This document shows, piece by piece, positions 2,996 to 64,000 of a stretch of 64,000 nt of DNA. The position numbers and the translations under genes were made by a program. The stretch is from the NCBI GenBank assembly GCA_030704615.1, contig CM060734.1, forward strand, positions 29,946,001 to 30,010,000, in the 5' to 3' direction. Below the pieces are notes generated by a model. The model made no database searches. It had not been told where the DNA came from and saw nothing but the letters and a program-made list of their open reading frames with translations. Each line of letters starts with the position of its first letter. Positions within the stretch are counted from its first letter, which is position 1. The stretch is from Takakia lepidozioides. Lineage: Eukaryota; Plantae; Bryophyta.

Positions 2996-3039
2996 CCATT
3001 GCCAATCTAACCAATCATCTGCACTTCCCTATACCTCCA

Positions 3040-29698: not shown

Positions 29699-29950
29699 TC
29701 ACCAGTAATCACCACAAGAACAAATCCCATCTTCAAAGTGGTGGAAAGTAGTTAGTAAAAAGCGTGTGTCAGGCACATACCCCGCCTCTTTCATCTGCCC
29801 AGACAATCTTCTCAGCTCAGCATGGATTTCCTTAATTCTGGGATGCAACTTGTCATCTGGCTCCTTTCTAACCCCTCTGACCTTCATCATTCTTCTCACC
29901 TTTGCAGCATCATCCCACCTGCCAGCTGCAGCATACATGTTTGATATAGC
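29699..29950 (-). pseudogene. PPR E/E+/DYW domain fragment with internal deletions
   Basis: SNMYAAAGRWDDAAKVRRMMKVRGVRKEP / HPRIKEIHAELRRLSGQMKEAGYVPDT / FHHFEDGICSCGDYW*; the HxE and CxxC deaminase motifs are missing. Confidence 0.9.
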
Positions 29951-37870: not shown

Positions 37871-37895
37871 CTATTGTTGTTTTTTGTAACTGCAG

Positions 37896-40923: not shown

Positions 40924-41400
40924 CACTAGAAGCATTCGTGTCATTTACTACTGGGGTAACGACTCATTTTGAGTCGTAAAAGTCAAAAAACTGGGATCGA
41001 CTAGAAGTTACAAACGACTAGTTACAACAGACGTGGAAGTTGGGTCGGACATCCAATGATTGGAGTGGTAAAGGACGCAGACGCGCGAACAACTGCTCAG
41101 CGATTATTGCAATTAATGCTGAAGAACCACGTGGCGTAACCAGGCGGGCCGCCCGTGTGTCTGACCTTTTGTGCTGACTTTGACTTTTCCCTCCGGATGA
41201 GTGGACTGACTCACCGGAGTGCGGTGACACATGGATGCGGACGTGGACGACGATGTGGACGCCGACGTGGCGGCGCCACGGCGAGCAGCACTGCTGCCAC
41301 GTGCCACTGGGCATGTAGCACTGCAAGTTATGTGGTCAACTACCACGTGGCGTCCTGCAACTGCCGAAGTCGGCGCTACCACTGTTTTACTACTTTAAAT
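40924..41400 (+). mobile_element. Putative CACTA/EnSpm terminus truncating gypsy copy A
   Basis: Homology with copy B stops exactly at ctgttgctta|CACTAGAAG; subterminal AACGAC/GTCGTA repeats follow. The other end was not found. Confidence 0.55.
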
Positions 41401-41779
41401 GAAGTGCTCAAAATTACTTGAACAATCACTCATAGTGGTTCATGCTTTGAAGTTTTGGTGTTTGTAATGAGCCGACTAGTACATATGCATGTAATGCCAT
41501 ACAAGAGAACTAATCATGTCATTAGAAATGCGAAAACAATGAAAGACATGCCATGAAACAAAACAAAATGAAAATGAAATGAAATGAAACAAATGGTACT
41601 TTCTTACATCTGCGGAAAGCTCAAAGAGCTTATGATACAAAATGAAAAAATCAAAGTAAAAAAGCAGCCCAAAGCTACTACTGCTTTGGGGATTGCCTAA
41701 GGGTCAAGGCCTCATGCAGGTAAGCTGCCAAGCAATTGTGATCCTCATAATGCAAGGCTTAGTGTCAGATTGAGTCCCA

Positions 41780-43460
41780 TGGAATAGACCATCTACCCAT
41801 GCAGGTTTCTTGTAGCTATTGATCCACAGGGAATCATAGGTAATCTTGTGCTTGAAATCTAGCCCTTTTGGATGAATGTGGACCCACACTCTCTTTGCTC
41901 CTTCAACTATACATGCCTCTGCACAAATCATGCATTCATCCTTGCCTCGCTGCTAGTAGCTGACAATGACAGCCTCGATTTATTCTAGGAAGTATCCAAC
42001 TCAGCTTCTCACACTAGTTCTTATGCTGAATGCATCTGTTAGTCTATGAAATGTAACAGGTATTCACCTTTTTGCCTTGGTTGTCCCATCATTGACTGGG
42101 GCAGAATAGTATTCATTCCACAACTTCTCCTCATCTCTGTTACTTGTTTTTTGATACTTTCCTGTTGTCACATTGGCAGTATCATGTCAAAGTCACTCCA
42201 AACTAGATTCACTCAACCAGCTAACTTGCAGAATTCAACATGGAAATTTAGGGCCAATTCTGATTAGAGGGAAAAACAAGGTGAAATGTGTTGAATAAGA
42301 TGTCTTCATTAGCAGTGTCTGATTTTATAAATTGTGCCGCTGCTGCCAGTTGACCATCTACCCATGCAGGTTTGTTGTAGCTATAGAGTCAATCTGGAGC
42401 TTGAAGCCCGGCCCTCTTGGGTGAATCTACACCCACACTCTATCCCTGCTCCGTCAACTATCTATGCCTCAAATCATGCATATATCATTGTCTTGCTGCT
42501 AGCAGCTGATGATGACAGCCTAGATTTGTTCATACACCCCAACCCTATTTGGAAAAACAGGCTGAAATATGTTGAGGAAGGTGCCTTCATTAATTAGCAG
42601 CACCTCATTCTATCAATTGTGTTGCCGCTACTGTTTCCACTTGCAACAATTGACCATCTACTCCAGCTGATTTCTTTTAGCTATTGATCCCTCAGCCTGA
42701 ACCTGAACATGAATCTGGACCTCTATCCCTGGTCCCTCAACTATCCTTGCTCGCGTACAGATCATGAATACATCCCTCAGCCTTGCTGTTAGCAGCTGAC
42801 AGTGACGGCGTGAAGTTCTTTCAGAAAACACCCCAACCTAGGACTTAACAGTAGTTCCAATTCTGAATTGCAACTGCTTCTCTCTGTAGTCGAACAAGCA
42901 CTCACATTTTTGTCTCCATTGTCCCCCCACTGACTGGGGTCGGAAAGTGTTCATCCCAAAGCTTCTCTTCATCTTGTTATCTGTTTTTGGGTACTTTCCT
43001 GCTGCCACATCAGCAGTAACTTGTCAAAGTCACTCCAAACCACCCCACATCCACCCAACGAGCTAACTTACAACATTCAATATGCAAATTCAAGGCTGGG
43101 TCTGATGAGAGGGAAAAATAGGCTGAAATAGGTCGAAGAAGAAGGTGCCCTCACCACATTGTCCTCAACCTTGTGTCATGACCCATGGAGGATTTGACTG
43201 ACCATGCACCCAAGATGACCTCTTGTGTGTGCGAGGTGTGTGCTGCTTCCACAGGGAATTGTAGGCGATCTGGAGCTTGAAATCCGGCCCTCTTGGATGA
43301 ATCTGGACCCACACTGCTCCCTGCTCCTTCAGCTATCCATGCCTCTGCACAAATCATGCATACATCCTTGCCTTGATGCTAGCAGCTGACAATAACACTC
43401 TAGAATTGTTCCAGCAAACACCCCAACCCTACTTATCACACTAGTTCCTATGTTGACTTG
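41780..43460. repeat. Four diverged copies of a 200-700 bp non-coding unit
   Basis: Shared blocks (gaccatcta..., cttgaa...ccctcttggatgaatctggaccc..., aatcatgca...gctagcagctgac) at about 41790, 42350, 42650 and 43250. Confidence 0.7.
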
Positions 43461-44494
43461 TGTCAAGCGGCTATTACTCACCCATCCCTTCGCTATCCGA
43501 GGTGGGAACTCCAAGGTAGAAGAGTTGGAAATCTCTAAGCACTCAGCCCGCTCAGAACAATCAGTCATGACCTACAGCTAGTGTATCATGGGGGTGTTTC
43601 CTATTTGTATTCCTTCCCGTATTCATGTTAGTTAGTTACCTTACTGTTGGTATTTAAGTATCAGATTGCTTCAGCAATCTATCGGATTCCATCAACTCAT
43701 ACATTCATTTCACAGCTTCACTCAGATCTCTCTACACATGGTGAGTATGAAGTATGTATCAGATTAATATCTATCAAGTATCAGGCTGAAGCCATGGAGT
43801 CTCTAATCTGCTCTACATTACAACTCTACTCCTTGCATTCATCAAGCATCAACAGATCGTTCTCCTCCTACTCCGTGCTCTCCCTCTTTCTACTCAAAGA
43901 TGCGCTCCCCGCTTCATTTCCCCCTCCGTGATGCCAGCAGTCCCCCAAAGAAGTAGTCCCCAAGAAGTGCTCCCCCCAGATGTCCCCACTTCTCGCTTTA
44001 TCTATTTACAAGCCGTTCTAACCGCTTTCCTAACTAACCGTTATCTCTGTAGTACACGTTCTTTTTTTCAGATGTCGTTCCCCCACAGTCGTTCCCTGCC
44101 AATGGTAACTGTTCCCCAGCTGTGCCGAGCTGTGACTGGCTGTATCAGGCTGTGGCGGGCTGTGACTGGCTGTGTCGGACTGTGTAGGGCTGTGCGAAGC
44201 TGTGGCGGCTGTGTCGGGCTGTGACGGGCTGTGTTGGCTGTGCGAAGCTGTGACGGGCTGTGCTGGCTGTGACTGGTTGTGTTGGACTGTGATGGGCTGT
44301 GTTGGCTGTGACTGGCTGTGTTGGACTGTGACGGGCTGTGACGGGCTGTGATGGACTGTGTTGGGCTGTGTATCTCCCCCCCTAAAGCCTGTTGCTGTCA
44401 CCCCTAAGGCTCATATTGGTCTTAGTCTGTGTCAAAATTAAGGGTACCCCACACATCCCGTAAAAGCGTCTAAGTCCCAAGCAGTCCTCTAACA
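43461..44494 (-). mobile_element. 3' LTR of gypsy copy B
   Basis: TG...CA ends, preceded by a PPT, internal GGCTGTGAC repeats; homologous to 37896-38924. Confidence 0.85.
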
Positions 44495-47400
44495 TTACCC
44501 CTCCCCCTCTCAAAAAGCCGTGTCCTCACGGTTTGCTGTTTGGGATTTGTAAACCTTTGTGAGCGAGCACCTTTCTGACGGTTAGAGTCTCGTGAAGGAC
44601 TCCTTATGCGAGCTCGAGTCCTGTCACTGGTTGACGGAGATGATTGAACACTACCTGGATATGTCAGTCCCTCCTTTGGCTGATATCGAGGTAATCTTTT
44701 AGGCATAGGAGACCCCCGTCGCTTCTTCTCTGCCATCTGAATTGCATAGTCCTCTGCCATGTCAAAAGAGTCCACTGAAGAAACAGTAGTATCAGAATCC
44801 TCGTCCCCCCCGAGGTGTTTTAACGGTCGAACTCTAACTGGAATTCTTTGGGGCATACAATGTTGTCCCACCATGTCTGGAAGTTTAAACTGCAAAACTT
44901 GCTGTAAGCGCTGAATGACAAAATTGGTGAAGACCCTGAACTCCTTGTCTGTCCAGGTGAGTGGGGTACCAATGACTTGTGAATTGTGCAAGTTTTTCCA
45001 TGCCTCATGGCCCTTAAAGAAAATATTGTCAGGCCCGAATTTCTGTGTTGACAAATTGTTCCAGGCCGCATGAAACCATGAATGAAGTTGGGAGTCCTTT
45101 TGCATCATCACCTTTGCATCATAGAGGTACATATGAGGTGGCACTGAAGGTAAGACCCAATGATCCCCACTGGAATAACTCAGAAAGCGCGATTGCATCT
45201 TCTGCTGCTCAATGTGATAACGTGCCAGAAAACAAGCAGCATAGTATAACCCGCAGCCCATGACAATACTTGCTACCTCCTTGGTCTTGGTATAAATGTA
45301 CCCATGTACAACTTGGAAGGCAATTAATTCCTTCAACATGGTACTTGCCTCATGCCAGTACCTCGCAAAGTGATGATCCTCAATGGGTCGATTGTTCGGA
45401 AGAACCTTAGTCCTAGTTGCCACTGGCAGCCAAATGCGCATGATTTGGTAGTAATGTGCCAACGACTGTGGAGGACTAAATTCCTTCCAAGCCAAATCCA
45501 ACACAATGGGAATTTGGTTGAAGGGCATAATCATAGCCCGATTGTACTCCCGTGCAGCATGAGTTTTAGGTGGGTTAAAAGCAGCATCCCCCCATACCTC
45601 AGGCTGTGGTGGCTGTGGTGTGGCTGTAGTAATAACAGGGTTAGCTACTGTCACAGTGACTTGTTGTGGTCTTGGTGGCACTGGCTCTTGTACCACTGGC
45701 ATCTCCTGCAACCCCTGCGAAGAAGACTGAAAAGCCAAAGTTCTGGCATGTAAATAAGAAGCCACCAGCTGCTCCTCAGGTGCAAAGACTCTCTTGTCGA
45801 TATTTGAAGTGAGGTCCTCCACCCGAGTCTGCAGGCCGTCTACATCCTCCTGTAACTCCGTTATCCTACTATAGACATTGTCTATAGTAGTTGTGGCAAT
45901 GTTCTGCACTTGCAGTCTGAGCTCATTCATCTCGCTTTGGGTGAGCTTTCGTGGTGCTTTGCCCTCCACCGGCCCTTGTGCTAACCAGACCTGCATAAGG
46001 TGGTTATCCACCAAGTTGCTTGTGGCACCCCTGAGAATCTGCTCCTCTGTGAGCCTGTATACATCTATCTGCTGCTGTAAAGCCTCCATGCGCTTTGCAT
46101 GAGGTTCAACCAAACTTGCATATGCAGCAGCCAGATTATTGGCTTCCTTCCAAGCCTTGTTAGCTACAGAGAGTTCATTTCTATTGGACATGAGCGTTTG
46201 TTGCAATTCCAGGATGTACCTCTCTTGGTCAGCTTCAACCTGCCTGTATTGCTTGAAAGTATTCTTGTTGCGACAGATTGTATTCTTCATATCAATAATG
46301 AGTTTCGTCTGCTCGAGATTATCAGCCTGTGCCTTCATACATCTTTCCGCTTGGTTGTTAACTTCTAATGTAGTTTGCTCAAGCGTAGTTGTGAGTGTAG
46401 CACATTGTATGGCCATCCTGTCATGCACTGTCTGCAACTCCGTATGTAGTGCATTCACTTCTTGCAACTTGCTTTCATGCTTCACCTGCATTTGGTATAG
46501 CTGTTGCTTATGTGCTTCGTGCAACTGGTCTTGCGCGAGGCCTGCCTCAATCAATTGTTTCTTGGCCAATTGCAAAGCAGCTTTTGTACTCTCTAAGTCT
46601 TGCTGCATCTTGAGTGTGACCTCCTCATCAACCTTGTTTGCACACTCAGTGGCAAGTCGAGCCTCAAACTCCTTCCTGAGTTCCTCCCTCAAAGCTGTCA
46701 ATTGGGTAGTTGGAACATGGGATTTGACATAAGTGCCCAACAAATTAAGTGTCCTACTTATGGAACTCATAAGCATGGTCTGTTGAGGGTCATCATGGTG
46801 AGCTTGCTGCTGTTCTCCCTGATCCTCAACAGTGTGATGCCTCACGAACCATTCAGGCCATTGCCCCACCATATTTTCTTCCTGAACCACTTCATCCGTC
46901 ACAGGTGCTGCAGTGTCTTGACATTCTACCTGTGGTACCTCCGTTACAGGTGTGGGTATTATATGTACAGCAGGGTTTCCCCTGGACAACCACTGTACCT
47001 CTGGAATCATTGTTTCCCTGACCAAGCCAGAATTTTCATAGAGAAGGTCCCCCTTCTCAATTTCTGCCACCACCTGTTCTGTAGTGGGGATATCTAACCC
47101 TTCTTTCTCCAAATCAATTATTTGTGGTGGAACTGCATGGACAACTTGTGGTAACTCTGTGACAAGCCGATCATCTGGCTGTGATGGCTGTGATACTGAA
47201 GTAACATCCTGTTCTCTCTCCACATGTTGCGTTGTTTGTACCCACATCTCTCTGTGCTGTTGTGCCCCCTCTTGCACAAGAGTATGAGTAACTTCTTCCT
47301 CTAGCTGTCTCCTAGCCAATGGTTCTGCTTCTAATGTGATTGCTTTTCTCTGCCTCTTAGGCTGTTGATGCTCTGCCAATCCCCCTTCACCCTGTGAAGA

Positions 47401-47613
47401 ACCTTGCTCTTCTATGGCAGTGGTTGTTGTCTCAAACACTCCCATCTCCTTCCTTTCTCTCGCATCAAGTATGCACGAGTCTAGAATAATTTGTGCAATG
47501 ATTGGCCCAGACACTATGATAGGAGACTTTGCGGCAGTGCCTTGTAATCTCTTCATCTCCTCTACCAGTGCGTTGTACATTATGTCCGCCCATGCTACCT
47601 CTACTCCTCTCAG
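44470..47613 (-). CDS. Uninterrupted ~1050-aa portion of the gypsy post-integrase long ORF (copy B); function unknown
   Basis: Open frame from LRGVEVAW to the stop inside the LTR; Q/E-rich and coiled-coil regions and an aromatic-rich C-terminal domain. The first ~75 aa of the predicted 1122-aa ORF come from unrelated sequence across a breakpoint. Confidence 0.75.
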   Translation of the reverse strand: MRGVEVAWADIMYNALVEEMKRLQGTAAKSPIIVSGPIIAQIILDSCILDARERKEMGVFETTTTAIEEQGSSQGEGGLAEHQQPKRQRKAITLEAEPLARRQLEEEVTHTLVQEGAQQHREMWVQTTQHVEREQDVTSVSQPSQPDDRLVTELPQVVHAVPPQIIDLEKEGLDIPTTEQVVAEIEKGDLLYENSGLVRETMIPEVQWLSRGNPAVHIIPTPVTEVPQVECQDTAAPVTDEVVQEENMVGQWPEWFVRHHTVEDQGEQQQAHHDDPQQTMLMSSISRTLNLLGTYVKSHVPTTQLTALREELRKEFEARLATECANKVDEEVTLKMQQDLESTKAALQLAKKQLIEAGLAQDQLHEAHKQQLYQMQVKHESKLQEVNALHTELQTVHDRMAIQCATLTTTLEQTTLEVNNQAERCMKAQADNLEQTKLIIDMKNTICRNKNTFKQYRQVEADQERYILELQQTLMSNRNELSVANKAWKEANNLAAAYASLVEPHAKRMEALQQQIDVYRLTEEQILRGATSNLVDNHLMQVWLAQGPVEGKAPRKLTQSEMNELRLQVQNIATTTIDNVYSRITELQEDVDGLQTRVEDLTSNIDKRVFAPEEQLVASYLHARTLAFQSSSQGLQEMPVVQEPVPPRPQQVTVTVANPVITTATPQPPQPEVWGDAAFNPPKTHAAREYNRAMIMPFNQIPIVLDLAWKEFSPPQSLAHYYQIMRIWLPVATRTKVLPNNRPIEDHHFARYWHEASTMLKELIAFQVVHGYIYTKTKEVASIVMGCGLYYAACFLARYHIEQQKMQSRFLSYSSGDHWVLPSVPPHMYLYDAKVMMQKDSQLHSWFHAAWNNLSTQKFGPDNIFFKGHEAWKNLHNSQVIGTPLTWTDKEFRVFTNFVIQRLQQVLQFKLPDMVGQHCMPQRIPVRVRPLKHLGGDEDSDTTVSSVDSFDMAEDYAIQMAEKKRRGSPMPKRLPRYQPKEGLTYPGSVQSSPSTSDRTRARIRSPSRDSNRQKGARSQRFTNPKQQTVRTRLFERGRGNVRGLLGT

Positions 47614-48359
47614 TTTCTGCTTCTGCTGGTATTGACATTTTTCAAGTGGATTTGTTCTTACTGTAGGATGCCAAGTACTGTAGGAGGGACGTCTACACCG
47701 CAGTTCATGGGCAGGAGGAACGTGCATTTTTTTGCCAGGGGGGGTTTCATGCCTAGTCCAGAAAGGGACTACATCCTTCCTACTTATGTTGCTCGGCTTG
47801 CTTCGGTGTCCATTAGGAGGTGTTCCGAACCTAGTCATGTACAGCAGATTTTAGACGAGGCAAGCCTCAAGAAAATGAAGATGAGGGAGGAGGTAGCAGC
47901 TATTAGAGCCCGTCAGGCTCGTAGATTTGTCTTGGATTCAGCTGAGGAAAGTGGGGGAGAAGATGCAGAAGATTCCCAGGAGGTGAGGTGGACAGTCCCC
48001 CAAGAGGACGAGATTTTTGAGAGGCATAGTGGAACTGATGCATCACAGAGCTCGGAGGATGAGGGGGATGAGGGGGATGAGGAAGAAGGTGGGGCAAGTT
48101 CCTTGGAGGGTGTAGGAGAGTAGTGCCCATTCCGGCTATGACAGTTAGAACACACTTGTATAGACGTGGCTTGCCACAAAATTTGCAATAAAATGTTGCA
48201 TTTCAAGTCCACTGGTGCCACATTTCAACTTCACATGACCCTATTTTCGTGCCTCCTAACCCTATTTCCGTGGACACACAATGGTCTGCTCATGTTTTTT
48301 TTTTTTTCCGCTCATGCTCATGCCGCTCATGAAATAGCAGCCCCCCTTTAAAAGTACCG

Positions 48360-49262: not shown

Positions 49263-49344
49263 GCGAGGGGAGGTGCCTTACAAAATCAGGAGGCAACTTA
49301 CAATGCGACCACTCACTCGTAAACCATTTTTGGTACCATTTTCC

Positions 49345-50020
49345 TAGGTTGGGCCCGAATATGGCTAAGTCCCAGAACTGACTGGGCGCGGAACTAGAAA
49401 AATGGCGCCGAATTTCCGGTTGCAGTTCCATCCACCCTAGGGACTTAGCCATTTTCGGGGCTGAAAATGGCTAAGTCCCAGATCTGACTGGGTCCGGAAC
49501 TAGAAAAATGGCGCCGAATTTCCGATTTTGCTGCCAGCCACCCTAGGGACTTAGCCATTTTCGGCCCCGAAATGGAAAAATGGCGGTTTTTTTTTTTTTT
49601 TTTTTTTTTTTTTTCTCGGCGCCATTTTTCCAGTCGGGGCCGAAAATGGCTAAGTCCCAGATCTGATAGGGCGCGGAACTGGAAAAATGGTGCCGAATTT
49701 CCAGTTGCGGTTCCAGCCACCGTAGGGACTTAGCCATTTTCGGGGCCCTGAACTGGAAAAATGGCGCCATTTTTCCATTTCGGGGCCGAAAATGGCTAAG
49801 TCCCAGATCTGATTGGGCCCAAAACTGGAAAAATGGCGCCGAATTTCCGATTTTGGTGCCAGTCAGATCTGGGACTTAGCCGTTTTCGGCCCCGAACTGG
49901 AAAAAATGGCGTTTTTTTTTTTTTTTTTTTTTTTTGGCGCCATTTTTCCAGTTCGGGGCCGAAAATGGCTAAGTCCCAGATCTGACTGGCACCGAAATCG
50001 GAAATTCGGCGCCATTTTTC
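49345..50020. repeat. Fold-back repeat block (AAAATGGCTAAGTCCC / GGGACTTAGCCATTTT, AAAATGGCGCC) with T-tracts
   Basis: Multiple direct and inverted copies; the same motifs recur at 53450-53620 and 54410-54690. Confidence 0.85.
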
Positions 50021-50022
50021 CA

Positions 50023-51000
50023 GTCATGCAGGTAATTCGAAGAGCAGATGGATGGAAATCCGGCGCCGGATTTCCATCCGCCAGGTAAGTCGGCGCGCAA
50101 AATTTCCGTCATGCAGGTAATTCGAAGAGCGGATGGATGGAAATCCGGCGCCGGATTTCCATCCTCCAGGTAAGTCGGCGCTGCAAATTTCTGTCATGCA
50201 GGTTACTTGTGAGCGGATGGATGGAAATCCGGCGCATGATTTCCATCCGCCAGGTACAAAATTTCCGTCATGCAGGTAATTCGGAGCGCGGATGGATGGA
50301 AATCCGGCGACGGATTTCCATCCTCCAGGTAAGTCGGTGCACAAAATTTCCGTCATGCAGGTAATTCGAAGAGCGGATGGATGGAAATCCGGCGCCGGAT
50401 TTCCATCCGCCAGCTAAGTCGGCGCGCAAAATTTCCGTCATGCAGGTAATTCGAAGAGCGGATGGATGGAAATCCGGCGCCGGATTTCCATCCGCCATGT
50501 AGGTCGGCGCGCAAAATTTCCATCATGCAGGTAATTCGGAGCGCGGATGGATGGAAATCCGACGCCGGATTTCCATCCTCCAGGTAAGTCGGCGCTGCAA
50601 ATTTCCGTCATGCAGGTAATTCGAAGAGCGGATGGATGGAAATCCGGCGCCGGATTTCCATCCGCCAGGTAAGTCGGAGCGCGGCCGGATGGAAATCCGG
50701 CGCTAAATTTCCATCCTGTAGGTAACTCGGAGCGTCGAATTTCCGTCAGGCAGGTAATTCGGAGGGCGGATGGTTGGAAATCCGGCGCCGAATTTCCATC
50801 CTGCAGGTAACTCGGAGCGCCGAATTTCCGTCATGTAGGTAATTCGGAGAGCGGATGGATGGAAATCCGGTGTCGAATTTCCATCCTGCAAGTAATTTGG
50901 AGCCTGGATGGACGGAAATCCAGCGCCGAATTTCCATCCAACAGGTACCTTGGATTGCTGGATGGAAATTCGGCGCCGAATTACCATCCTGCAGGTAATT
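50023..51000. repeat. Tandem array, ~85-bp unit, each with a palindrome up to 30 bp (GGATGGAAATCCGGCGCCGGATTTCCATCC)
   Basis: Unit starts at 50023, 50108 and 50193; shorter degenerate units after 50700. Confidence 0.92.
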
Positions 51001-51119
51001 TCTGAGCGTGGCCGCTAGGTTTTTGGTCTAAGAAGACACTAAACCTTTAGTTTTTTTGGCTGAAGTCCACTTTTAGACACGTTTTTCAGGGAATTCTCGA
51101 TTGCTAGGGGGAAATCCGA

Positions 51120-52230
51120 ACGGCCCTGGACGGAAATTCGGTGCCGTTTTTCCATCCTGGGAGGTTTTATGTCGGCCTATTTTCAGCCAGACCCCCTGAC
51201 ACGACTTCCTTTGGGGGGCCCGGATGGAAATTCGGCGCCGAATTTCCATTCGGGGGATGCTCTCTGTCGGACAGGTGCCGGCCTCTCTGCCCGAAGCGAC
51301 TTCATCCGGGCGTCCTCTGTTGGAAATTCGGTGCCGAATTTCCGTCCGGGGGTTGTAATTTGACAGCCAAGTGCCGCCCTCTCCCCCCGAGCCGACTGCA
51401 TCTGAACAGCCCCGGATGGAAATTCGGCGCCGTTTTTCCATCCGGGGAGGTTTTTATGTCGGCCACTTTTCGGCCTGACCCCCCGACAAGACTTCCTTTG
51501 TGGGGGCCCGGATGGAAATTCGGCGCCGAATTTCCATCCGGGAGATGCTCTCTGTCGGACAGGTGCCGGTCTCTCCGCCCGAGGCGACTTCATCCGGGCG
51601 TCCCCTGTTGGATATTCGGTGCCGAATTTCCGTCCGGGGGTTGTAATGTGACGGCCAGGTGCCGACCTCTCCCCCCGAGCCGATTGCATCCGAACGGCCC
51701 CGGATGGAAATTCGGCGTTGTTTTTCCATTCGGGGAGGTTTTTATGTCGGTTAGTTTTCGGCCTGACCCCCCGACAGGACTTCCTTTGGGGGGGCCCGGA
51801 CAGAAATTCGGCGCCGAATTTCCATCCGGGGGATGCTCTCTGTCGGACAGGTGCCGGCCTCTCCGCCCGAGGCGACTTCATCCGGGCGTCCCCTGTTGGA
51901 TATTCGGTGCCAATTTTCCGTCCGGGGGTTGTAATGTGACGGCCTCTCCCCCCGGGCCAACTGCATCCGAACGGCCCCGGATGGAAATTCGGTGCCCAGG
52001 GAGGTTTTTATGTCGGCCAGTTTTCGGCCTGACCCCCCGACAGGACTTCCTTTGGGGGGGCCGGATGGAAATTTGGCTCTGAATTTCCATCTGGGAGATG
52101 TTCTCTGTCGGACAGGTGCCGGCCTCTCTGCCCGAGGCGACTTCAACCGGGCGGCCCCTGTTGGATATTCGGTGCCGAATTTCCATCCGGGGGTAGTAAT
52201 GTGACGGCCCGGTGCCGGCTTCTCCCCTTC
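51120..52230. repeat. Four tandem ~288-bp units with GGAAATTCGGCGCCGAATTTCC palindromes
   Basis: GTCGGACAGGTGCCGG recurs at about 51266, 51554, 51842 and 52107. Confidence 0.9.
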
Positions 52231-52489
52231 AGCCGACATCATCCGGACGACCCCCCACTTTCTGATTGCATACCATTGGCAGTTATTGCGCAAAGACCAG
52301 GGGCCGCATTCCGGAGACAAGGTTCATTAACACTCTGACTGTGGATTTTTGAGATAGTTGGCTCCCTGGATTTGGATCAGGCTTCGTTGCACGGACAAAT
52401 CGGCACCGCATTCCTTCCCATCACTGCATCCCCCTTCTACCAGGGAGCTTGCCCGCACGCCATCCTGGCTGTCTTGTGTGCACATCTCC

Positions 52490-53300
52490 CATGGCGGAAA
52501 ACCCGAGCGCTACAGTGTACAACCCTCCTCACGAGCATAGAGCTTCATTTCCGTGCAGAGGGGACATCTGCCGTGTGATGGAGAAATATCTGTGCGTTCG
52601 ATACCACGTGAAACCGGGGGTCGGTTTTTTTGGAGGAGGAAAGAAGGACTCAAACGGCGTTGTTGTCGAGAGTATTGTTGTGCTCCACGATGATTTCGGC
52701 GATGGCAGGGAATGACGAGTTCCACCATCGGACAGCGTCATATACAGGGCTGTTGGGGACTTCATTTGCTCGCCAAATGCACCTTCTATCCTGGCGCCTT
52801 CCACGAAACAATTCGCGAATCAGAGTGTGGGTACCTCAAATAGAGAAGTCCGCAACGAAGTAAATCCAGAGCTGAACCCATCAATGAAGACGAGCGAGAA
52901 CCGGGTTGTTCACAACCTGTCCGACTCAGACGAGGTCATGGAAGTTCCGAGATCGTCCTGGAGATCAGGCAAGTCCTCAATGGACGTCAGTGGACGAGGG
53001 AGTCATATTCCCAGCACGAGCACCGCAGTTCGATCCATTCTTGAAATTCTGCGAGGGCTTCACATGCAGGGACACCGCTCGGAGCTGGCCGGGCTGGACT
53101 ATAGCAAGTTCGCATTTAAATCGGTTACATGCCTTCCTGCAGACGTCGACGGTAATATCTTCTTTGAGTTCCCTCCTCGGGCGGCCTTGCGAGAGGGCCT
53201 TTGGGACACGCCATTGCTTCGAAGAGGCCAACAGCCGATGCGTTGAGCGTGAACGAGCTGCACAAACTCCTCCTTAGGGATTCCAGAAATCATTGATGGG
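52490..53300 (+). mobile_element. Internally deleted copy of a SWIM-domain DNA-transposon-like gene
   Basis: The ORF ...VTCLPADVDGNIFFEFPP is followed by sequence matching 55950-56005 and then 54845-54900 in inverted orientation. Confidence 0.5.
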
Positions 53301-54843
53301 GCAAAGAGAATCCTCCATATGGATATTTTCAATTGCATTTTCAGGTATCAGACTTTTTTTTGCAGTGTAATGAAATGCACCCCAAAACTCCTGGAATGAG
53401 GCAATATTCCATTCAAACTGAGATCCAACAGAAGCAGTTGTGGGGCCATTTCTGGAAAAATGACGCCGAATTTCTCTATTTTGGGCCGAAAACTGGCTAA
53501 GTCCCAACATGCATTGGTCTGGATGTGTCTGGAAAAATGGCGCCGAATTTCCCTATTTTGGGCCGAAAACTGGCTAAGTCCGAACATGCACGGGAACGAT
53601 GTCTGGAAAAATGGCGCCGAATTTCCAGTTACATGACCCAAGAACTGCCCAACATCTGTGCAATCCCCGGCACACCATGTACAAAAATTCGGCGCCACAT
53701 TTCCAAATTTTGGGCTTACACACCTGTCATGAGGGGACCGATAGCCGCGGAATTCCGCACCATTTTTCGCCAGAGAGACCTATTACCGCGAAATACGTCG
53801 CGGATTTTTCCGGTTACGGACCCTATTACCGCGAAATTCGGCGCCATTTTTGCACATGTCGCTGGGAATTGGCATGAGCGGAAGACGAAATATCATGAGC
53901 ACAACTCTCAAAACTACAATTTTCCCTTCAAGGTGCCGAATAATATATTTGTTTTTTTCTGACACATTGCATTAAATTAATGTTTTTTATTTTCGAAATT
54001 TGTACTTCTGCTCATGAAAACGAGGTTTGCTATTTCATGAGCATGAGCGGCATGAGCAGAGTAGTAACACAATCGGTTTTCATGAGCAGAAGTACAAATT
54101 TCGAAAATAAAAAACAATAAAAAACAATAATTTAATGCAATGTGTCAGGAAAAACAAATATATTATTCGGCCCCTTGAAGGGAAAATTGCAGTTTTGACA
54201 GTTGTGCTCATGATATTTCGTCTTCCGCTCATGCCAATCCCAGCGACATGTGCAAATATGGCGCCGAATTTCGCGGTAATAGGGTCCGTAACCTGAAAAA
54301 ACTGCGACGTATTTCACGGTAATGGTCTCTCTGGCGAAAAATGGTGCCGAAGTCCGCGGCTATAGGTCCCCTCATGACAGGTAATTCGGCGCCATTTTTC
54401 CAGTGCATGTTCGAACTTAGCCAGTTTTCGGCGCAAAATAGGTAAATTCGGCGCCATTTTTCCAGACACTGTACCAGTGCATGTTGGGACTTAGCCAGTT
54501 TTCGGCCCAAAAAAGAGAAATTCGGCGCCATTTTTCCAGACACGGTACCAGTGCATGTTGGGACTTAGCCAGTTTTCGGCCCCAAAAAGAGAAATTCGGC
54601 GCCATTTTCCCTGACACAGGTACCAGTGCATGTTGGGACTTAGCCAGTTTTCGGCCCCAAAAAGAGAAATTCGGCGCCATTTTTCCAGAAATGGCCCCAC
54701 AACTGCTTCTGTTGGATCTCAGTTTGAATGGAATATTGCCTCATTCCAGGAGTTTTGGGGTGCATTTCATTACACTGCAAAAAAAAGTCTGATACAGCAA
54801 AATGCATTTGAAAATATCCATATGGAGGATTCCGTTTGCCCCA

Positions 54844-56034
54844 TCAATGATTTCTGGAATCCCTAAGGAGGAGTTTGTGCAGCTCGTTCACGCTCAACGC
54901 CGGTGCATGAATAAAGTCATCAATAGTCACGTTCATCCTCAACCTCTTCAGGTAGATGTAATATAGATGCTTGCACGGATAATACTTCGAACCCTTCTTT
55001 GCTTCCATCAACGAGAAGTCCGTACAATTGCAAGTCGGCTCCACTCCAATCGTAATTGTATACATCGTCGCGTACAGCCGAGCCGGCCGTTGCCATCCGA
55101 TACACACGCCCAAGGCCGGGTGGGGGTACGTCCACGGAGCTCTGAATAGTGCAAACCATCCCAAGAGCATTGGCAATCCGAGTCTCATTCAACTTGTTGG
55201 GAGGGTGTCGTCTCTTCACTCTTCCGAATCGCATTGTGGGATGTGCAGAATTGTCCAATCCGTCTCTACTGGACCGAGCAGTCTGCAATGGCTGGGTCTG
55301 AGGAACCGGAAATGCATGGGCCGGGATGTCTGTGCGTTGCACCATTTGAAATCCTGCTGCAGATAGAGCATCCGCCTCATTCTGAGAGAGGCTGCAACCC
55401 GGTGCAACAGGCCAGACGCCGGAGGCTCCGGCATTCCCTGAATCCCGTACTTGGGCTTGCCAAATACACAGGTCATTATGTCGTGCCTACAGAACCAAAA
55501 TGTCTGCGTTGTGGCGTGAGCAAATGTGGGAGTCAAAAATCTGCCGCTGAAACAAGGTGCAGGTACAACACCGTGTGGGTTCCTCCGAATCATCTCACCA
55601 CAACGTGCTCTCGTATCCACCCGGATGGCGCAGCACTTCCCTCGAAATGCCGGCAATGTTTTCGCAATTCTCCACTGTGACTCCGACACTCTTGTCTCCA
55701 CAATGGGAATGTTGTACTGCTTTACTACAGATGGCTCGTTATGTTGCCGGGGCACGCGCCCTGTGCTCAAAGGAGATGACGATCTTGAACGTGCAGGACT
55801 TGCGGTGCTCGACGAGACCTCCTCGGGCAACATCACGGGACCACGAGGGAGCGTGCGAATATTCTTGTCAGCTCGCCATGAATCCTCTTCTCCGCCAGGT
55901 GCCTCGTCAAGTCTTCGTCTCACTGGACGGGTATGAACATCTCCTTCCAAATGTTGGCCTCTTCGCAGCAATGGCGTGTCCCGAAGGCCCTCTCGCAAGG
56001 CCGCCGCCCACTTCCGAGGATTCTTCGATCTAGA
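54844..56034 (-). pseudogene. SWIM zinc-finger protein C-terminus (MULE-like transposon gene), frameshifted, cut by the gap
   Basis: YTITIGVEPTCNCTDF...YPCKHLYYIY matches the SWIM CxC...CxH pattern. Confidence 0.65.
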
Positions 56035-56534: not shown

Positions 56535-56977
56535 GTGTATTGGTTAGTAGGTAGTGAACTATAACTCTTATAGTAAAGAGGTTGGAGGTTCAAACTCCTC
56601 TAAGTACAATCAAATGGATAAGATGGCCCTAAGGTTAGTAGGCGAGCTAGGGATAGCACGTGGCACCTTAGATGGGCTGCCACGTGGTTTTTTCATTATT
56701 ATAAAATGTATTATGCCACGTGACACAACGCAGTACGACGCGGCATTTGCCATTTTTTATTTTTTTATTTTTTGAAAAAAAATATATATTTAATTTTTTT
56801 AATCAATTGCGCCTCGCCACGTGACGGGGCAGCGGCGACTGCAGTATGGTATATATGAATGCAGTGAGAGATATCACTTGGTTTATCTGACTATAGTCAT
56901 CCGGACCGTACCATCCTGTACTCATTGTATTCACTTGGTTTGCACGACTTATAGTCATATAACTGTTTACGCTTTTT

Positions 56978-58400
56978 ATGGCGTGGAAGGGGCTGTTTCA
57001 GCACCTTGAGGGGCCGCCAATGGTCAATTACCATGAGTTTAGGCGGGGACATGAGGTGGAGATTGAGGAATGGCGGGAGTATTGGTCACCTGACTATATC
57101 TCCATCACCAAAGGCACAAGAGCAGCGGCGACACCAGCAGCTACACCAACATCCCCAACTGCAAGCACTAGTAGTGGGACAAGTGGTACAGGAACTGGGA
57201 AATCTACTCAAGCTCCTGTTGCATCACCATCATCCGTGCCTGCCTTTAACCCAGTTGTGGAGTTCTTCGAGGAGTTGAGGAGAAACTACCAGGGGATAAG
57301 AACAGAGAAGTTGCCCACGGAGCTTGCAAGAGTTCCAACGGAGGCCTACTGAGAGTTTGAGGGAGGCTTACACGCGCATGAGACGCTTGATAAATGTAAC
57401 CCAAGGGGTTACGGAAGCTCAGGCAGGCCAATTCTGGTATGGGAATTGGACAAGGAGTTGAGGAGAAGGGTGCGGGATGCAACTCTCCTACAAGTGGCCC
57501 AACCCACCCTAGCAAATGTATTTTTGCTAGCAGAGCGGATAGAGCTCAACATGGTGGAGGAGCGAGTGGTTATGGTGGGGTTTGGCAAGGAGACACAAAG
57601 AAGTGGGGTTCCTAGCCAACAACAATAAACCCCCCAACTTGCTCAAGGCAACAAGGGGGGTCAGACAAAGCCCAGGGAAGGTCAGAGGGGATCTCAGATG
57701 CAAAGGTCTCTTCTTTCATTCTCAGGCCAACAATAGACGAGTGGGTCATGAGGGCAGAGAGGACCTCAGATGCAGGGGTCTCTCCCTTCATTTGCTGGCC
57801 AACAACGGGCGGATGTGGTGTGCTGGACATGTGGAGGACCCCATGTCAAGAAGGATTGCCCAGAGGGAGGCAAAGGGTCGGCACATGCACAGCCTGCACA
57901 GTTGCAGTGTGGGCATTGTGGCAAGCACGAGCATGGAGAGGCCCAGTGTTATGGTTTGCATCCTGAGTTGCGCCCAGGCCAGTTCCAAGGGAACAATGGT
58001 GGCCGGGGGCAAGGTGGAGCAGCCCAGAGAGGACGAGGTGGCCAGCCACGAGGTGTAGGCCAAGGGCAAGCTCAACATGGCCAAGGGCGCGGAGGTCAAG
58101 GTGTTGACCAAGGCATGGCCAACCGGCTTCAGCAGCTAGAGCAGAGGCTCGCTGCCATGGCTACAGCTCAGGTGGTACCGGCTCTAAGGCCGGATGGTCC
58201 ACCTCCTGCTCCTGAGGGAGGAGATATGGGAGGCATGGGATTCATGTGTGGAGCAGCACTACCACTAGTGCAGGTGGAGTCTGCTGCAGCCGTGACTCGA
58301 GGAGCAGCACGAGTTCCTGAGCCACGAGGTGCAGAGGTGGAGTTGGATCCATAGCGTGGGGAGGCAAGCCGTCAGGCTAGGCTTTCAGTCATTCACATTG
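56978..58400 (+). pseudogene. gag with two zinc knuckles and an RGG/Q-rich tract
   Basis: CWTCGGPHVKKDC and CGHCGKHEHGEAQC; split over several frames. Confidence 0.75.
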
Positions 58401-58859
58401 GCGGAGACAGTGTCGACGCCATCCATGGCACCTAGTTCTCGCCCGACGGTTACCGAGGCGGAGGTTACTATGCCATTGGGGAGAGCTACACGGGTAGCAC
58501 CACTACCTAGTGTTGCCAAGGCTACGGCAGCGAGTGTGCTGCTAGGAGCGGCCACATCTGTGTGCCAGGCTCCATTGTTCTCGGCTACCATGATTGCGAC
58601 GCCGGGGGTAAAACCAGCTGAGGTGTTCAGGCTGGCAGCTACACTCTGTGAGAGTGGGGAGGTTACTTCATCTTCTGCGGAGATAGTGGGAGGTGTAGTG
58701 CCGGAGGGATCCTCGGATTTGAGGGTCAAGACTGCCACGGCGGCGCCATGGCAAGCTGCAGCTGCCAGGTTGATGGAGCTACCAGCCATTGAGCGCGCCA
58801 TGGTGACACCTGGAGTTGTCATGTTAGACAACCAGGATGGCATTTTCTGTTTGAGTGGA

Positions 58860-59200
58860 CCGGCAGGCAAGAGGTACCGGCCACTGCGGGTCTTGTTGGA
58901 CTCGGGAGCTCAGCCATTGATGCTGGGCAGAGCTGCTATTGCAGGCTTGGGCCTCACGGAGGCGGATATGGAGCCTTGTCCTTCCAGATACAGACGTCTC
59001 TAGGAGGATCGGAGCAGGCTCGGGGCATGACACGGCGTGAGTTGGCTATCAGACTACGGCCGGATCACCCTACAGATGGCTCAGTGATGCGAGCCAAGGC
59101 CATTGTGACAGACGCAGTCTCATACGATGTCCTGGTTGGTGGGGCAGTGTTGTACCCCATGGGCTTCACCCTGGATTTTTGGGAGGAGTCAGCTTCCTAT
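58860..59200 (+). pseudogene. Retroviral-type aspartic protease
   Basis: RVLLDSGAQ catalytic motif at about 58899 and YDVLVG motif; frameshift near 58980. Confidence 0.8.
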
Positions 59201-59611
59201 AGGCCTGCATGGCAGTCAGGGGAGGGCCGGCGTGTGCAGCTCCCTGTGACGTTCATAGGAGGAGTTGCGGTTGCCCAGCGAGGCAAGATGCCGACACTAG
59301 CAGCATTCACAGCGGCAGTGAGATGGCCTAGAGAGTTGCTTGAGGGCAATGCTCATTCAGAGGATGTACCACCTCCGGGAGAGCAGGATGACATGTATGG
59401 TATGGCGGAGTTGCCTACCATGGTTGCTCAGACTCCATTGTGGGGCACGAGCAAGGATTTGCAGCGGGATGCTGATCGACGGGTGCAACAAGCCTGGGTG
59501 GAGGCTTTTGTACCGTCAAGAGAGGAGGAGAGTGTGGGGATTGCACCAGGACCACCTCAATTGTCTCCATTGGACACCACACCTATTGTGTGGCAGTATC
59601 CGGATGAAGGC

Positions 59612-60560
59612 ATTTGTCTTCTGGACTTGTTTGGCGGGATCAGCACCGGATTGGCTGCTGTGTTACAAGCAGGTGTACGAGTTCGGCGTTACCTGTATGT
59701 GGAGAGGGATGAGACTGCACGACGCGTTTCACTTTGCCATGTTGCTCAGTTGGTGCAGCGGTACCCTGAGTTGTTGTCGGTGTCTGCAATTCGTGGATAT
59801 CAGCAGGCCTTGCCAGCAGACATTTCGTTGCTGGGGGCGCAGGATTTGGAGCGGGTTGGCTCCATTGATCTGGTAGTGGCAGGTTGGCCCTGCCAAGGGC
59901 ATTCATCAGCCGGGCATGGCAATGGATTGCGAGACTCGAGGTCGGGTCTGTTTTGGGAGATGGTGCGGGTTTTGCGCCACTTGCAGCTTCATCAAGCTGT
60001 ATCTCCAGCATACATCTTGGAGAATGTGCCACTGATGGGCGATTCTCGGGCCAGGGTGATGGCCAGTGTGCATCAAGTCCGGTCGTGGCTTGGGTCAGCA
60101 GTGTTGCTAGATGCAGCTACAGTGGGGTCACGGGCTCATCGTCCACGGCTATGGTGGACTAACTTGATGCCACCCGCACTGCTCAAGCGTGCATTTGATG
60201 GGGTGCAGCGGCCAGCACATCTCACAGTGGATAACATTTTGGACACAGGGAGGCAGTCTCAGCGTGTGAGACACGATGACCATTCGCCTTTGGCAGTGGT
60301 CAACAAGGTGGGTCAACCACGAGCAACATTACCTACACTGCTCAGCTTCCCAGGATCGCATGCTTTCCGGATAGTGGACCTGGCCTCCTGTGGGATGCTC
60401 AGTTGCAGCAGTTAGTGGAGCCTAATGCTGACGAGCGTGAGCGGGCAATGGGTTTTACCACTGGTACCACGGCGGTGTCGTCTCTTTCTGAGGCATCACG
60501 TCGTCAAGTGTTGGGGCAAGCAATGGATCTCAATTGCTTGACCTGGATTATCAGCTTGGC
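59612..60560 (+). pseudogene. DNMT3-like cytosine-5 DNA methyltransferase domain embedded in pol (one frameshift near 60370)
   Basis: Motif I LDLFGGISTG, II YVE, IV DLVVAGWPCQ, VI ILENV, VIII AHRPRLWWTN, IX ERAMGF, X RRQVLGQAM, in canonical unpermuted order. Confidence 0.93.
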
Positions 60561-60989
60561 TCTAGCTGAGCAACGCAGAGTGCGGAGTACACTTCCCTCA
60601 ATGGTCTCTCTGCCTACCGAGACGGTACAGGCAGTGAGTGGGGGCGAGCATGTGAGGACCACGGGGTGCATGCATCCATGGCACACGTGGGAGGTGCTCG
60701 AGGTTCAGAGGGAGTTGGCAGCCAAGGCGGCTGTGATGGATGAGGTTGGGGATTCTTCTCGGGTTGAGGAGGTCCTCAAGGATGAGATGATGGGGCAGGA
60801 TGAGGCCTTGTCATTGACTGAGCAGGCAGGGAGTACTGCTCAAGAGGTTGCAACATAGCAACCACTGGACGCGTCCTCTACCTCTAAGCCCACTGGACTT
60901 AAGGTTGCAGTTACGGAGGACAATTGGGAGCCTGACATTGGACCCATTGTCACCGGAGGAGAGAGACGACGTATACGGCGGTTCCTGAG

Positions 60990-62360
60990 GGCTTACAGGA
61001 ATTGCTTTGCCTTCAGTTTGAAGGACTTGGGAGCACTGAAGGGTCAAGAGATCCGTATTGAGTTGGCCACTGACACGCCAATCTTTCGGAGACCCTATAG
61101 ATACAGTGACATGGAGAGGTCTTTGATTCAGATGAGGACTCAAGATCTCTGGGAGGCAGGTTTGGTGGAGCTCTCTGGTGGAGAGTATGCTTCAGCCACA
61201 GTGATGCCAGCCAAGAAGGATGTCTATGGCAATTGGACGGAGAGACGTATGTGCGGTGATTACCGGCCTGTAAATCGTCAGACCAAGTCCGATAAGTATG
61301 CCATGCCAACACCAGAGGAGATCTTTGATGCCATCGGGCATGCTAAGGCCTTTAGCACTTTGGATTTACGATCCGGATATCACCAGTTGCCAATCAAGGA
61401 GGCGGACAAGCAGAAGACGACATTCTGGGGGATCAATGAGCACGGCAAGGATTGCCTATATCAGTGGCGGTTCTTACCATTTGGGCTTAAGAATGCTCCT
61501 GCAGAGTTTCAGAGAGTCATGGATAGGATTCTAGCAGGGGTGGACTTTGCTCGGTGCTACATAGATGACATCATCATCTTTAGTGTTACGATGGAGGAGC
61601 ATGAGAGACACCTTCAGGTGGTATTGGAGCGCTTGAGAGCGCACGGATTGAAGTTGCATCCGGGGAAGTGCAAGTTTTTCCACAACCAGATTGAGTATCT
61701 GGGTCACATGATATATCCTGGAGGATTGGGGGTACAGCAGACTAAGGTAGAGGCCATTGCACAAATTCCACGCCCCACGGATGTGAGCCGAGTTCGAGCT
61801 TTCATGGGGTTGGCAAACTATTATAGACGGTTTGTCAAGGGATTTAGTACCATTGCAAAGGCTCTAACCAAGCTGACCAAGGTGGACCAGGAGTGGCAGT
61901 GGGAAGATGAGCAGGAACGAGCTTTTCAAGAGCTCAAGGCGAGGTTGACCTCGGCGCCTATCCTGAGACGACCTATCAGGGGGCGTCCCTTTCAGCTGCA
62001 TACGGATTGGAGCATGTTGGGGCTTGGAGCGGTGCTCACACAGGTGGATGATGAGGGAAGAGAGTTCGTAGTGGCTTATGCTAGCCGCTCGAACAACGCT
62101 GCAGAGGCTAAGTACAGCTCATATGAGGGAGAGTGCTTAGCTGCAGTGTGGGCCGTGGCACACTTCAGGTGCTATCTATACGGCAATCTTTTCACCCTTG
62201 TCACGGATCACCAGCCACTCAAGTGGTTGATGGAGTCAGACAAGCTTACGGGGAAGCTTGCACGGTGGGCACTCATACTCCAGGAGTATGACTTTCAGGT
62301 TGTGCATCGACCAGGTTTGGTCAATCGGGATGCGGATGGATTGAGTCGCAATCCATGCAT
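60990..62360 (+). CDS. Reverse transcriptase + RNase H (open frame)
   Basis: RMCGDYRPVN, LDLRSGYHQ, LPFGLKNAP, CYIDD; LHTDWS, YASRS, TDHQPL, RWAL, DADGLSR. Confidence 0.97.
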
Positions 62361-62459
62361 GAGCCAGCAGGATGACACAGGAGCTCGGTGGCATGGTGAG
62401 ACGGACGAGGAGATGGTGCCGGGATGGCACGCATCTGTTTTTGTGTATCTTGGCATCGG

Positions 62460-63991
62460 GAGGTCAGGTTGGACCTACAACAGGGATGACTGTAGACGGA
62501 GTGTCTGAGGACCCTGAGGCTAGTGATGAGCCAGGTGGTGCCAGAGATATACATGAGGATTCGGCTGTGTTGGACTACCTCCGCACGGGAGACACGGCAG
62601 CCACTGTGACTGCCAGGGAGAGGGATCGGATCCTGCAACGAGCCAAGAGGTTCAAGTGGGAGGGGATACACCTACTTCGAGTGTGGGAGGATGGTCGGGT
62701 GAGGATTGTGCCTCACCCCACACAGCGTGCACGGTTAGTGCGGCATGCCCATGAGGAATTGGGGCATTTTGGAGTGCGACGCACTCACAGTTTACTGCAG
62801 GGGCAGTATTGGTGGCGTGGTATGCATACAGAGGTGCAACAGTTCGTGGCTAGGTGCATGGTGTGTGACAGGGTGCGTGCTTCATTCAATGCCCCTACAC
62901 CACAGTTGCATCCTTTACCAATCATGGGATTGGGCTACAGGTGGAGTCTTGACTTCGCAGGACCGTTGCCACTGACTATGCGCCACCACAGATATGTGTT
63001 GGTGATGGTGGAGCACTTCTCCAAGTGGATTGAGTTGGTTCCATTGCGTGACAAGGCTAGTGAGGGGGCTGCGTATGCATTCTTGGATCGTGTGCTTAGC
63101 CGATTTGGTGCTCCAGCTGAGGTACTCACGGACCAAGGGAGAGAGTTCTTGGGGGAGTTTCAGGCTTTGTGTGATAAAGCCTTGATAGACCACCGCACCA
63201 CTTCTCGGGATCATCCTGAGGCCGATGGCTTGGCAGAGAGAGTTGTTCAGACGATGAAGAGGGGTTTGCGCAAGTATGGCTTGCAGAAGGGACACCTAGG
63301 AGATTGGGATCTTCAGGTTCCTTGGTTAGCCATGGGCTACAGGTTCAGCAAACAAGCATCACTTGCCTCCTTCTCACCATATTTCCTTCTCTTTGGCCGA
63401 GAGCCGGATTTGCCTGCAACCATTCGTAGGGACACTGCTCAAGTCCTTAACCTTGACGATCCGGACGTGTGGGTACGTGCATGTGATCAGCGTGCAGAGT
63501 TGTTCAAGAAAGTCATGCCCATGGCTTTTGAGAACCTTGCCATTGCACAGCACCGTGATACGTTGAGGTATGCCACTATACGTGGTGGAGGATATCGTCC
63601 TGGGGTTCGGAGGTTTAGCCCTGGTGACTATGTTTATTTGCAGCAGACTGCTCCTACGACTCTGGATGTTACTGCAGGGCGTGTTATTCTGAGGGTTCGA
63701 GAGGTGTTGCCCTCAGGGGTCCTGATCTTAGAGGGTCGGGATGGCATGACTTGGAAGGACCATGTGCGTAATTGTGCGCCATGTCACCTTCCCAATGTCG
63801 ATGGCAGAGTTGACCCAAACTTGGCAGTGGTACCTGCAGGTTTGAGGTGCATGCTCTGTGGGTCTGCCAAAGGGGCAGCCACCATGCTGGTGTGTGATCG
63901 ATGCTCAAGGGGTTGGCATATGGGATGCTTGACACCACCTCTTGAGAAGGTTCCTGACGGAGATTGGTTGTGTCCACACTGCTTGGGATAG
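62460..63991 (+). CDS. Integrase with C-terminal PHD finger
   Basis: HEELGHFG...CMVC; SLDFAGP, TDQGREF, LAERV; PHD CMLC...CDRC...HMGC...WLCPHC (C4HC3) at 63848-63982. Confidence 0.95.
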
Positions 63992-64000
63992 TGGCAGTGG

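Follow-up and report, generated by a model that had tools for sequence, protein, structure and literature searches.

What use a retrotransposon makes of a stolen DNA methyltransferase has been an open question since 2018, and it is raised anew by a stretch of 64,000 nucleotides from the moss Takakia lepidozioides (assembly GCA_030704615.1, contig CM060734.1, positions 29,946,001 to 30,010,000), hereafter the window. On its plus strand, at 56963-63991, the window encodes a retroelement with the domain order Gag (with two zinc knuckles), aspartic protease, C5 DNA methyltransferase (DNMT), reverse transcriptase (RT), RNase H, integrase and PHD finger, which includes the GAG-PR-RT-RH-INT order by which Ty3/Gypsy elements are defined (PMC6317226). 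A first mechanistic clue to the role of the captured enzyme is provided by an in-frame stop codon at 60856-60858. Because this stop is found family-wide and separates the DNMT from the RT, the enzyme is placed at the end of the Gag-protease frame, so that the first open reading frame (ORF1) consists of Gag, protease and DNMT, while RT, RNase H, integrase and PHD finger are, judging from the sequence context of the stop, likely made by readthrough. The location of the DNMT on the high-abundance side of such an expression switch suggests a dose-hungry job on complementary DNA (cDNA) or on chromatin.

The stop, with its context TAG CAA CCA (60856..60864, plus strand), lies about 110 codons beyond the last motif of the DNMT, and the same frame continues into the RT. 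UAG-CAR-YYA is the readthrough consensus of tobacco mosaic virus (PMC2754532, PMC3159437), for which readthrough of about 20% to nearly 40% has been reported in plant reporters (PMC2754532). That the stop might be a private mutation of the window copy was considered and rejected, as no variant of at least 3% occurs at 60856-60864 in any of four runs compared over 60790-60930, two of which, X2 and X4, represent one sample that is possibly the source of the window (1,132 contigs in X2; at 60853 and 60866, most of the depth shows a different base), and as 27 of 33 related loci carry the stop. The other six loci are without the site, with four ending earlier, one having it deleted and one being a weak match. 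Among the 27 contexts, TAG CAA CCC occurs 15 times, TAA CAA CCC seven times, TAG CAG TTA and TAG CAA TCA twice each and TAG CAA CCA once, whereby the window copy and five of the 27 loci fit UAG-CAR-YYA exactly. As the 22 CCC loci are closely related, about five independent stop lineages rather than 27 are to be counted. In five lineages, the bases from +1 to +8 fit the consensus and the six bases before the stop vary, and the hexamer after the stop stays within the consensus even where it encodes different residues (QP, QL, QS); CARYYA would arise by chance at a given site with a probability of 0.0013. The relative L022 is open on both sides of the stop, with a Gag-protease-DNMT frame of 1,369 codons, TAG CAG TTA, and an RT-RNase H-integrase-PHD frame of 1,047 codons, and at the corresponding position, 77-82 residues past the DNMT, seven proteins terminate, five of them from Marchantia and two from Calypogeia. 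A possible RNA stem downstream of the stop (60865..60985, plus strand) is a weak hint at best: single folds gave z values of -0.7 to -3.3 in five relatives and -2.1 in the window copy, the stem site placed among the top 0-11% of control positions when five elements were put to a duplex test whose arms were picked after seeing the folds, and a common consensus fold was not convincing, being weak (-2.9 kcal/mol) and not recovering the same stem.

The catalytic domain of the enzyme itself (59582..60594, plus strand) shows motifs I (LDLFGGISTG, 59621-59650), II (YVERD, 59696), IV (AGWPCQG, 59879), VI (ILENV, 60014), VIII (RAHRPRLWW, 60131), IX (ERERAMGF, 60433) and X (LGQAMD, 60511) in the canonical order expected of DNMT3, with the catalytic PC, ENV and RxR all present, and matches PF00145 with an E-value of 7e-13. 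The best solved-structure matches by sequence are DNMT3A/B (E 1e-9, single-sequence search); a profile of 42 sequences retrieves DNMT3A at E 2e-26 versus 8e-15 for the best DRM-type entry and 4e-8 for DNMT2; and with the predicted structure of the stop-free domain of the relative L002, 69% identical to that of the window (pLDDT 92.8), all 30 of the Foldseek matches listed are DNMT3A/B/C. A DRM-type or DNMT2-type identity is rejected on these profile E-values and the structure search, and by profile and modelled fold the enzyme is DNMT3-type and non-permuted. None of the homologue matches found could be recognised as a host DNMT3. An intron is not needed in the window element because its whole region is collinear with L022, itself two open frames. 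The sequence-only reading of this DNA had thus rightly described a full, intronless C5 methyltransferase of the DNMT3 and not of the permuted DRM type, encoded on the plus strand and collinear between protease and RT. Its placement of the enzyme 'inside the Pol polyprotein' has to be given up since the DNMT is the last domain of the Gag-protease frame ahead of the stop, and the ATG at 56978, with which its interval opens, is not the start, as Gag homology is already present at 56963.

In searches tiling 254-2310 residues, 41 and 109 homologues came up; their named sources are Marchantia polymorpha, Calypogeia fissa, three Sphagnum species, Klebsormidium nitens and Cymbomonas, besides one weak bacterial match; no vascular plant is among the named homologues. 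In run X2, 83,597 of 3,038,600 contigs fall on a stretch of 7.5 kb, with matching summed depth over the DNMT (0.9-1.3 million) and the RT (1.0-1.2 million), a summed contig depth being not a copy number but a support for 'highly repeated' only. The family is highly repeated and carries the DNMT domain. Trees built from all 15 protease-DNMT-RT rows and 30 of 60 others, with a second tree of 25 rows, agree between RT and DNMT on the main groups, and the stop-bearing clade is recovered in the RT trees (97; 100/99) as well as in the DNMT tree (99). Thirteen protease-DNMT-RT rows including Klebsormidium P0032 share one side of a 100/99 branch of the RT/RNase H tree, which is unrooted and without DNMT-free Gypsy rows. 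As read from these trees, DNMT and RT have co-descended within the family.

Fourteen chosen pairs from ten copies were used for the ratio of non-synonymous to synonymous substitutions (dN/dS). For the unsaturated pair L022/L023 (dS 0.26) the ratio is 0.119 for the DNMT, 0.114 for the protease and 0.049 for the RT, and between lineages the DNMT ranges from 0.09 to 0.22, in line with the Ka/Ks below about 0.2 of KnitGypsy-Dnmt3; in Sphagnum-type copies that have decayed, the drift is similar for every domain (DNMT 0.37-0.68, RT 0.34-0.62). The DNMT domain is under purifying selection across the family. Two of the three conditions that would have refuted the sequence-only reading are therewith countered, in that other copies carry the methyltransferase, a family feature, and in that it decays no faster than the protease. 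Relatives occur in the land plants Marchantia, Calypogeia and Sphagnum, from which no previous description was found in the literature searched.

A profile search retrieved 602 clusters at an E-value of 1e-30 or better. The best 150 of the 602 comprise 138 new proteins, 32 of which show a full RT-RNase H-DNMT-integrase-PHD arrangement, most of the other multi-domain ones being pieces thereof. A second, apparently larger lineage with the DNMT between RNase H and integrase is represented by P0033 (Cymbomonas), P0018, P0024, P0025 and others; no description of this layout was found in those parts of the literature that were examined.

The ends of the element are seen in a complete relative, L019, where repeat A (1676-2017) is followed by the coding region, a polypurine tract, and repeats B (10238-10350), A (10350-10691) and again B (10693-10805). 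The whole (L019:1676-10805) is flanked by a 4-bp target duplication, AAGG, and the repeat units are of the form TG..CA; a TGG-type primer-binding site is absent after repeat A of L019. The B|A junction is also present in L022 and L025, and L010 and L011 extend no further than the first B. L019 appears as an element with a DDE integrase that has DIRS-like ends instead of plain long terminal repeats (LTRs). At the C-terminus of the integrase in the window, a PHD finger (63848..63991, plus strand; PF00628, E 2e-10) is followed by the stop codon. Membership in the chromoviruses was rejected because the integrase is followed by this PHD finger and not by a chromodomain. The nearest solved PHD fingers are those of CHD4, PHF12, KDM5A/B, ATXR5, PHF21A and BAZ2. 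Most of these read unmethylated lysine 4 of histone H3 (H3K4), as does the ADD finger of animal DNMT3.

How could such an element use its enzyme? The reading that we favour, with moderate confidence, is that active members make Gag-protease-DNMT3 in bulk and RT-RNase H-integrase-PHD by occasional readthrough, and that the cDNA of the element itself would be the substrate of the enzyme. A minority of ribosomes would read through UAG-CAR-YYA, most of them stopping after the DNMT, and the DNMT would enter the particle as a fusion with Gag, with roughly one copy for every capsid subunit, to be freed by the protease; a methyltransferase at capsid stoichiometry would follow from the location of the DNMT on the Gag side of the readthrough stop. 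The enzyme would then put 5-methylcytosine, probably at CG, on the new double-stranded cDNA, and the PHD finger, by analogy with its named relatives, might steer integration to nucleosomes with unmethylated H3K4. The new copy would arrive pre-marked, resembling silent chromatin at its landing site. In accordance with methylation of the cDNA, the DNMT3 domains of SymbioDIRS elements methylate CG de novo in yeast (PMC5890265). A bolder version, which is tentative and which we would rather doubt, sees an ancient and widespread bryophyte lineage as a self-contained epigenetic machine, in which recoding would load one DNMT3 per capsid subunit, the cDNA would be methylated before integration and an integrase PHD finger reading unmethylated H3K4 would provide the targeting, as ADD does for animal DNMT3; the lineage would then supply mosses and liverworts, Marchantia included, with de novo methylation that has gone unnoticed.

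Several observations weigh against the favoured reading. Concerning the recoding signal, 22 of the 27 loci have CAA CCC and thus depart from the UAG-CAR-YYA consensus by one base, these 22 being close relatives that match Sphagnum fallax P0026 around the junction. In the two CAA CCC loci that were checked (L019:6940-6952, L009:9231-9243), an ATG stands two codons beyond the stop, and the Sphagnum-type CAA CCC with ATG possibly marks a change from readthrough to reinitiation. Four gene models from bryophytes (P0004, P0006, P0012, P0026) span the junction with a shortened linker; judged from the proteins and not from their DNA, they are best read as containing predicted introns. Concerning the dose, most distant relatives place the DNMT between RNase H and integrase, and Klebsormidium-type proteins (P0032, P0019 and others) run the DNMT into the RT without a stop. 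Because these stop-free and RNase H-DNMT-integrase layouts exist, a Gag-level supply of DNMT is not required everywhere. In the pairs with both ratios estimated, dN/dS is higher for the DNMT than for the RT, by a factor of 1.2-3.4. Concerning activity, the Klebsormidium domain gave no methylation in yeast, a result called inconclusive there (PMC5890265), and the element is not depleted in CpG, its observed/expected ratio of 0.51 being not below that of three other stretches of the window (0.32-0.46).

With the same anatomy and the same readthrough, the DNMT3 could instead leave the particle and act on chromosomes, be it at the integration site, on existing copies in a self-limiting silencing, or at host loci. 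Expression at the level of Gag would yield enzyme well beyond the needs of a single cDNA, de novo and CHH methylation in Physcomitrium are mainly carried out by host DNMT3 (PMC10952607), and self-restraint has been raised as a possibility (PMC5890265). We nevertheless regard action in trans as unlikely, as the fusion to Gag favours packaging, the algal-type location of the DNMT between RNase H and integrase points to work on the cDNA or the integration complex, and the Klebsormidium methylome is ordinary (PMC5890265).

Cis action on the cDNA aside, the favoured reading depends on translation across the stop, which might alternatively be bypassed by splicing, with TAG as the 3' splice site, by reinitiation or by an internal promoter. 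TAG is indeed a YAG acceptor, and in Sphagnum-type copies it is preceded by T-rich sequence (T fraction 0.45-0.50) and closely followed by an ATG; Ogre elements splice their gag-pro/pol junction (PMC6317226), and the stop junction of Tca2 drove internal expression in yeast tests (PMC2194720). A bypass is distinctly unlikely, however, given that conservation is found 3' and not 5' of the stop and that only 41% of the bases upstream of it are pyrimidines in the window copy. Furthermore, no methionine precedes the RT core in the window copy or in L022, the first one after the stop falling inside the RT in both, none of the joints listed ends at the TAG at 60856, and one contig, from run X12, which is only guessed to be RNA, crosses the TAG unspliced.

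Also the chemistry of the enzyme can be questioned, in that the domain might be kept for nucleic-acid binding, a structural role or RNA methylation instead of DNA methylation. Besides the inactivity of the Klebsormidium domain in yeast (PMC5890265) and the missing CpG depletion, this alternative can draw on motif IV, where 71 of 138 distant representatives (P0271-P0408 and others) have EC although PC is near-universal at this place, which may constitute an unusual catalytic loop in algal-type retroelement DNMT3s. Yet the catalytic cysteine, the ENV-type motif, RxR and the motifs binding S-adenosylmethionine are kept in the window copy, GWPCQ is kept in all ten stop-bearing loci of the tree set, and the fold is predicted to be DNMT3 and not DNMT2, which makes a role other than DNA methylation improbable. 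Finally, a fragment of a host DNMT3 might have been captured just once, the stop having arisen by chance in a copy that is dead; this alternative can draw on the ten other lesions of the window copy and is rejected as next to impossible in view of the 41 and 109 homologues, the other copies that carry the domain, the equal depth of DNMT and RT, the invariant stop, a dN/dS of about 0.1 and the congruent trees.

The window copy itself is a dead, decayed member of the family, all its parts being on the plus strand. The Gag capsid region (56963..57592) is 5'-truncated and was delimited by tblastn with the Marchantia protein P0001 (44-78% identity by segment), homology starting at residue 44 of P0001 at position 56963, so that the first 43 Gag codons of P0001 are missing; its equivalent in L022 scores as Retrotrans_gag/Ty3 capsid. 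In comparison with P0001, there is no Gag match upstream of 56963, where, after an assembly gap, an unrelated repeat (56535..56962, strand not assigned) stands in place of the element's 5' end and the first approximately 43 Gag codons. The summed depth of this repeat is about 30-fold below that of pol in run X2; by eye it resembles a tRNA, it contains three GCCACGT boxes, and ARAGORN and Rfam reported no tRNA or Rfam match in this 5' flank. The two zinc knuckles of the nucleocapsid (57821..57949) are flanked by four premature stops (57626, 57734, 57749 and 58352). The aspartic protease (58782..59257) has LLDSGA at 58893, the Pfam Asp_protease_2 match of its L022 relative being below the curated cut-off. 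Beyond the conserved stop follow the RT (60990..61713; RVT_1 E 4e-33, YIDD at 61558), RNase H (61900..62289) and the integrase with HHCC zinc finger, DDE core and C-terminal part (62717..63793). Six frame changes occur, near 57314 and 57441 in Gag, 58385, 58982 in the protease, 60368 in the DNMT and 62437 after RNase H. At five of these six and at the stop at 57626, contigs of other copies disagree with the window copy among the matches listed. A terminal repeat is not visible within the 64 kb, the 5' end being lost beside the gap of Ns and the 3' end lying beyond base 64000.

Elsewhere in the window, a multi-exon gene for the TFIIA large subunit (15764-20605, minus strand) scores best with Sphagnum and Ceratodon, then with liverworts, then with a lycophyte (120 of 230 homologues compared), a ranking that points to a land-plant host and likely to a bryophyte. 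A DYW/E-motif PPR fragment (29702-30043, minus strand) and a decayed endonuclease of the long interspersed element type (31155-32345, plus strand) are followed by a tandem duplication (37300-48300) with a spacing of about 5.57 kb and 81-97% identity, within which a 1,126-codon open frame (44473-47850, minus strand) matched no Pfam family. Arrays of palindromic repeats of 74-96 bp lie within 49340-54900, together with an inverted repeat of about 1.6 kb (53240-54900; arms 94-96% complementary) that adjoins a SWIM-finger fragment (54847-55188), and the region 49340-54900 is possibly a Mutator-type end. The remnant of another integrase-bearing retroelement (737-3200, minus strand) is about 29% identical to the integrase of the DNMT element.

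With respect to novelty, this kind of element has been known since 2018 and the land-plant range of the family was foreseeable; the part that a specialist would likely find new is that a conserved recoding site leaves a captured DNMT3 on the side of Gag. With many copies in Marchantia polymorpha, the question can be asked in a plant for which genetics and methylomes are available. At the same time, bryophyte annotations list Gag-protease-DNMT proteins as ordinary genes, some as 'DNA (cytosine-5)-methyltransferase', which can confuse DNMT inventories. In the literature searched, with subscription papers outside its scope, no description of the land-plant members, the stop or the PHD finger was found. 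Marchantia and Sphagnum do not occur in the term-searched supplement of PMC5890265, nor do these names, PHD or methyltransferase occur in the main text of the PMC6317226 survey. Later papers speak of 'streptophyte' elements (PMC12344493; bioRxiv 10.64898/2026.05.21.726589), and among the many PHD-transposon fusions in bioRxiv 10.1101/2021.11.30.470311, Supplementary Table 6 may list the present ones.

The closest known system is KnitGypsy-Dnmt3 of Klebsormidium nitens, a Gypsy-borne DNMT3 (de Mendoza et al. 2018, PMC5890265). It shares with the present family the Gypsy domain set, an intronless, non-permuted DNMT3 between protease and RT, and purifying selection, and its DIRS-like A-coding-B-A-B repeats match those of L019 (PMC5890265). 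In KnitGypsy-Dnmt3, however, DNMT and RT share an open reading frame, where they are here cut apart by a conserved stop of the leaky type, and a C-terminal PHD finger as found here is not mentioned in the portions of the KnitGypsy-Dnmt3 text that were examined, Fig. 4c aside (PMC5890265); the present family moreover has land-plant hosts and is highly repeated in the genome of the window. Because its DNMT is not in the open frame of RT and RNase H, the family is, by its sequence, filed as a variant lineage of KnitGypsy-Dnmt3 and not as a strict member. SymbioDIRS-Dnmt3 of Symbiodinium is likewise a retrotransposon-borne DNMT3, but possesses a tyrosine recombinase in place of the DDE integrase and has been described as an independent capture (PMC5890265). 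EpiLTR/DAM-LTR elements similarly combine a DNA methyltransferase with a chromatin-reader domain in an LTR element, whereas their DNMT is sister to DNMT4 and comes with DAM and a chromodomain, and they are stated to be distinct from the streptophyte Gypsy-DNMT3 elements (bioRxiv 10.64898/2026.05.21.726589). A chromatin reader at the C-terminus of a Ty3/Gypsy integrase is also known from the chromoviruses Tcn1 and Chlamyvir (PMC6317226), in which it is a chromodomain instead of a PHD finger. As to the stop, the leaky stop of the tobacco mosaic virus type equally consists of an in-frame UAG with CAR-YYA ahead of a polymerase frame (PMC2754532, PMC3159437), and frames separated by a stop are found in the retroelements MuLV, Tca2 and SIRE1 (PMC2194720). 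Unlike stops after Gag or after Pol, the present one falls after the protease and the captured enzyme.

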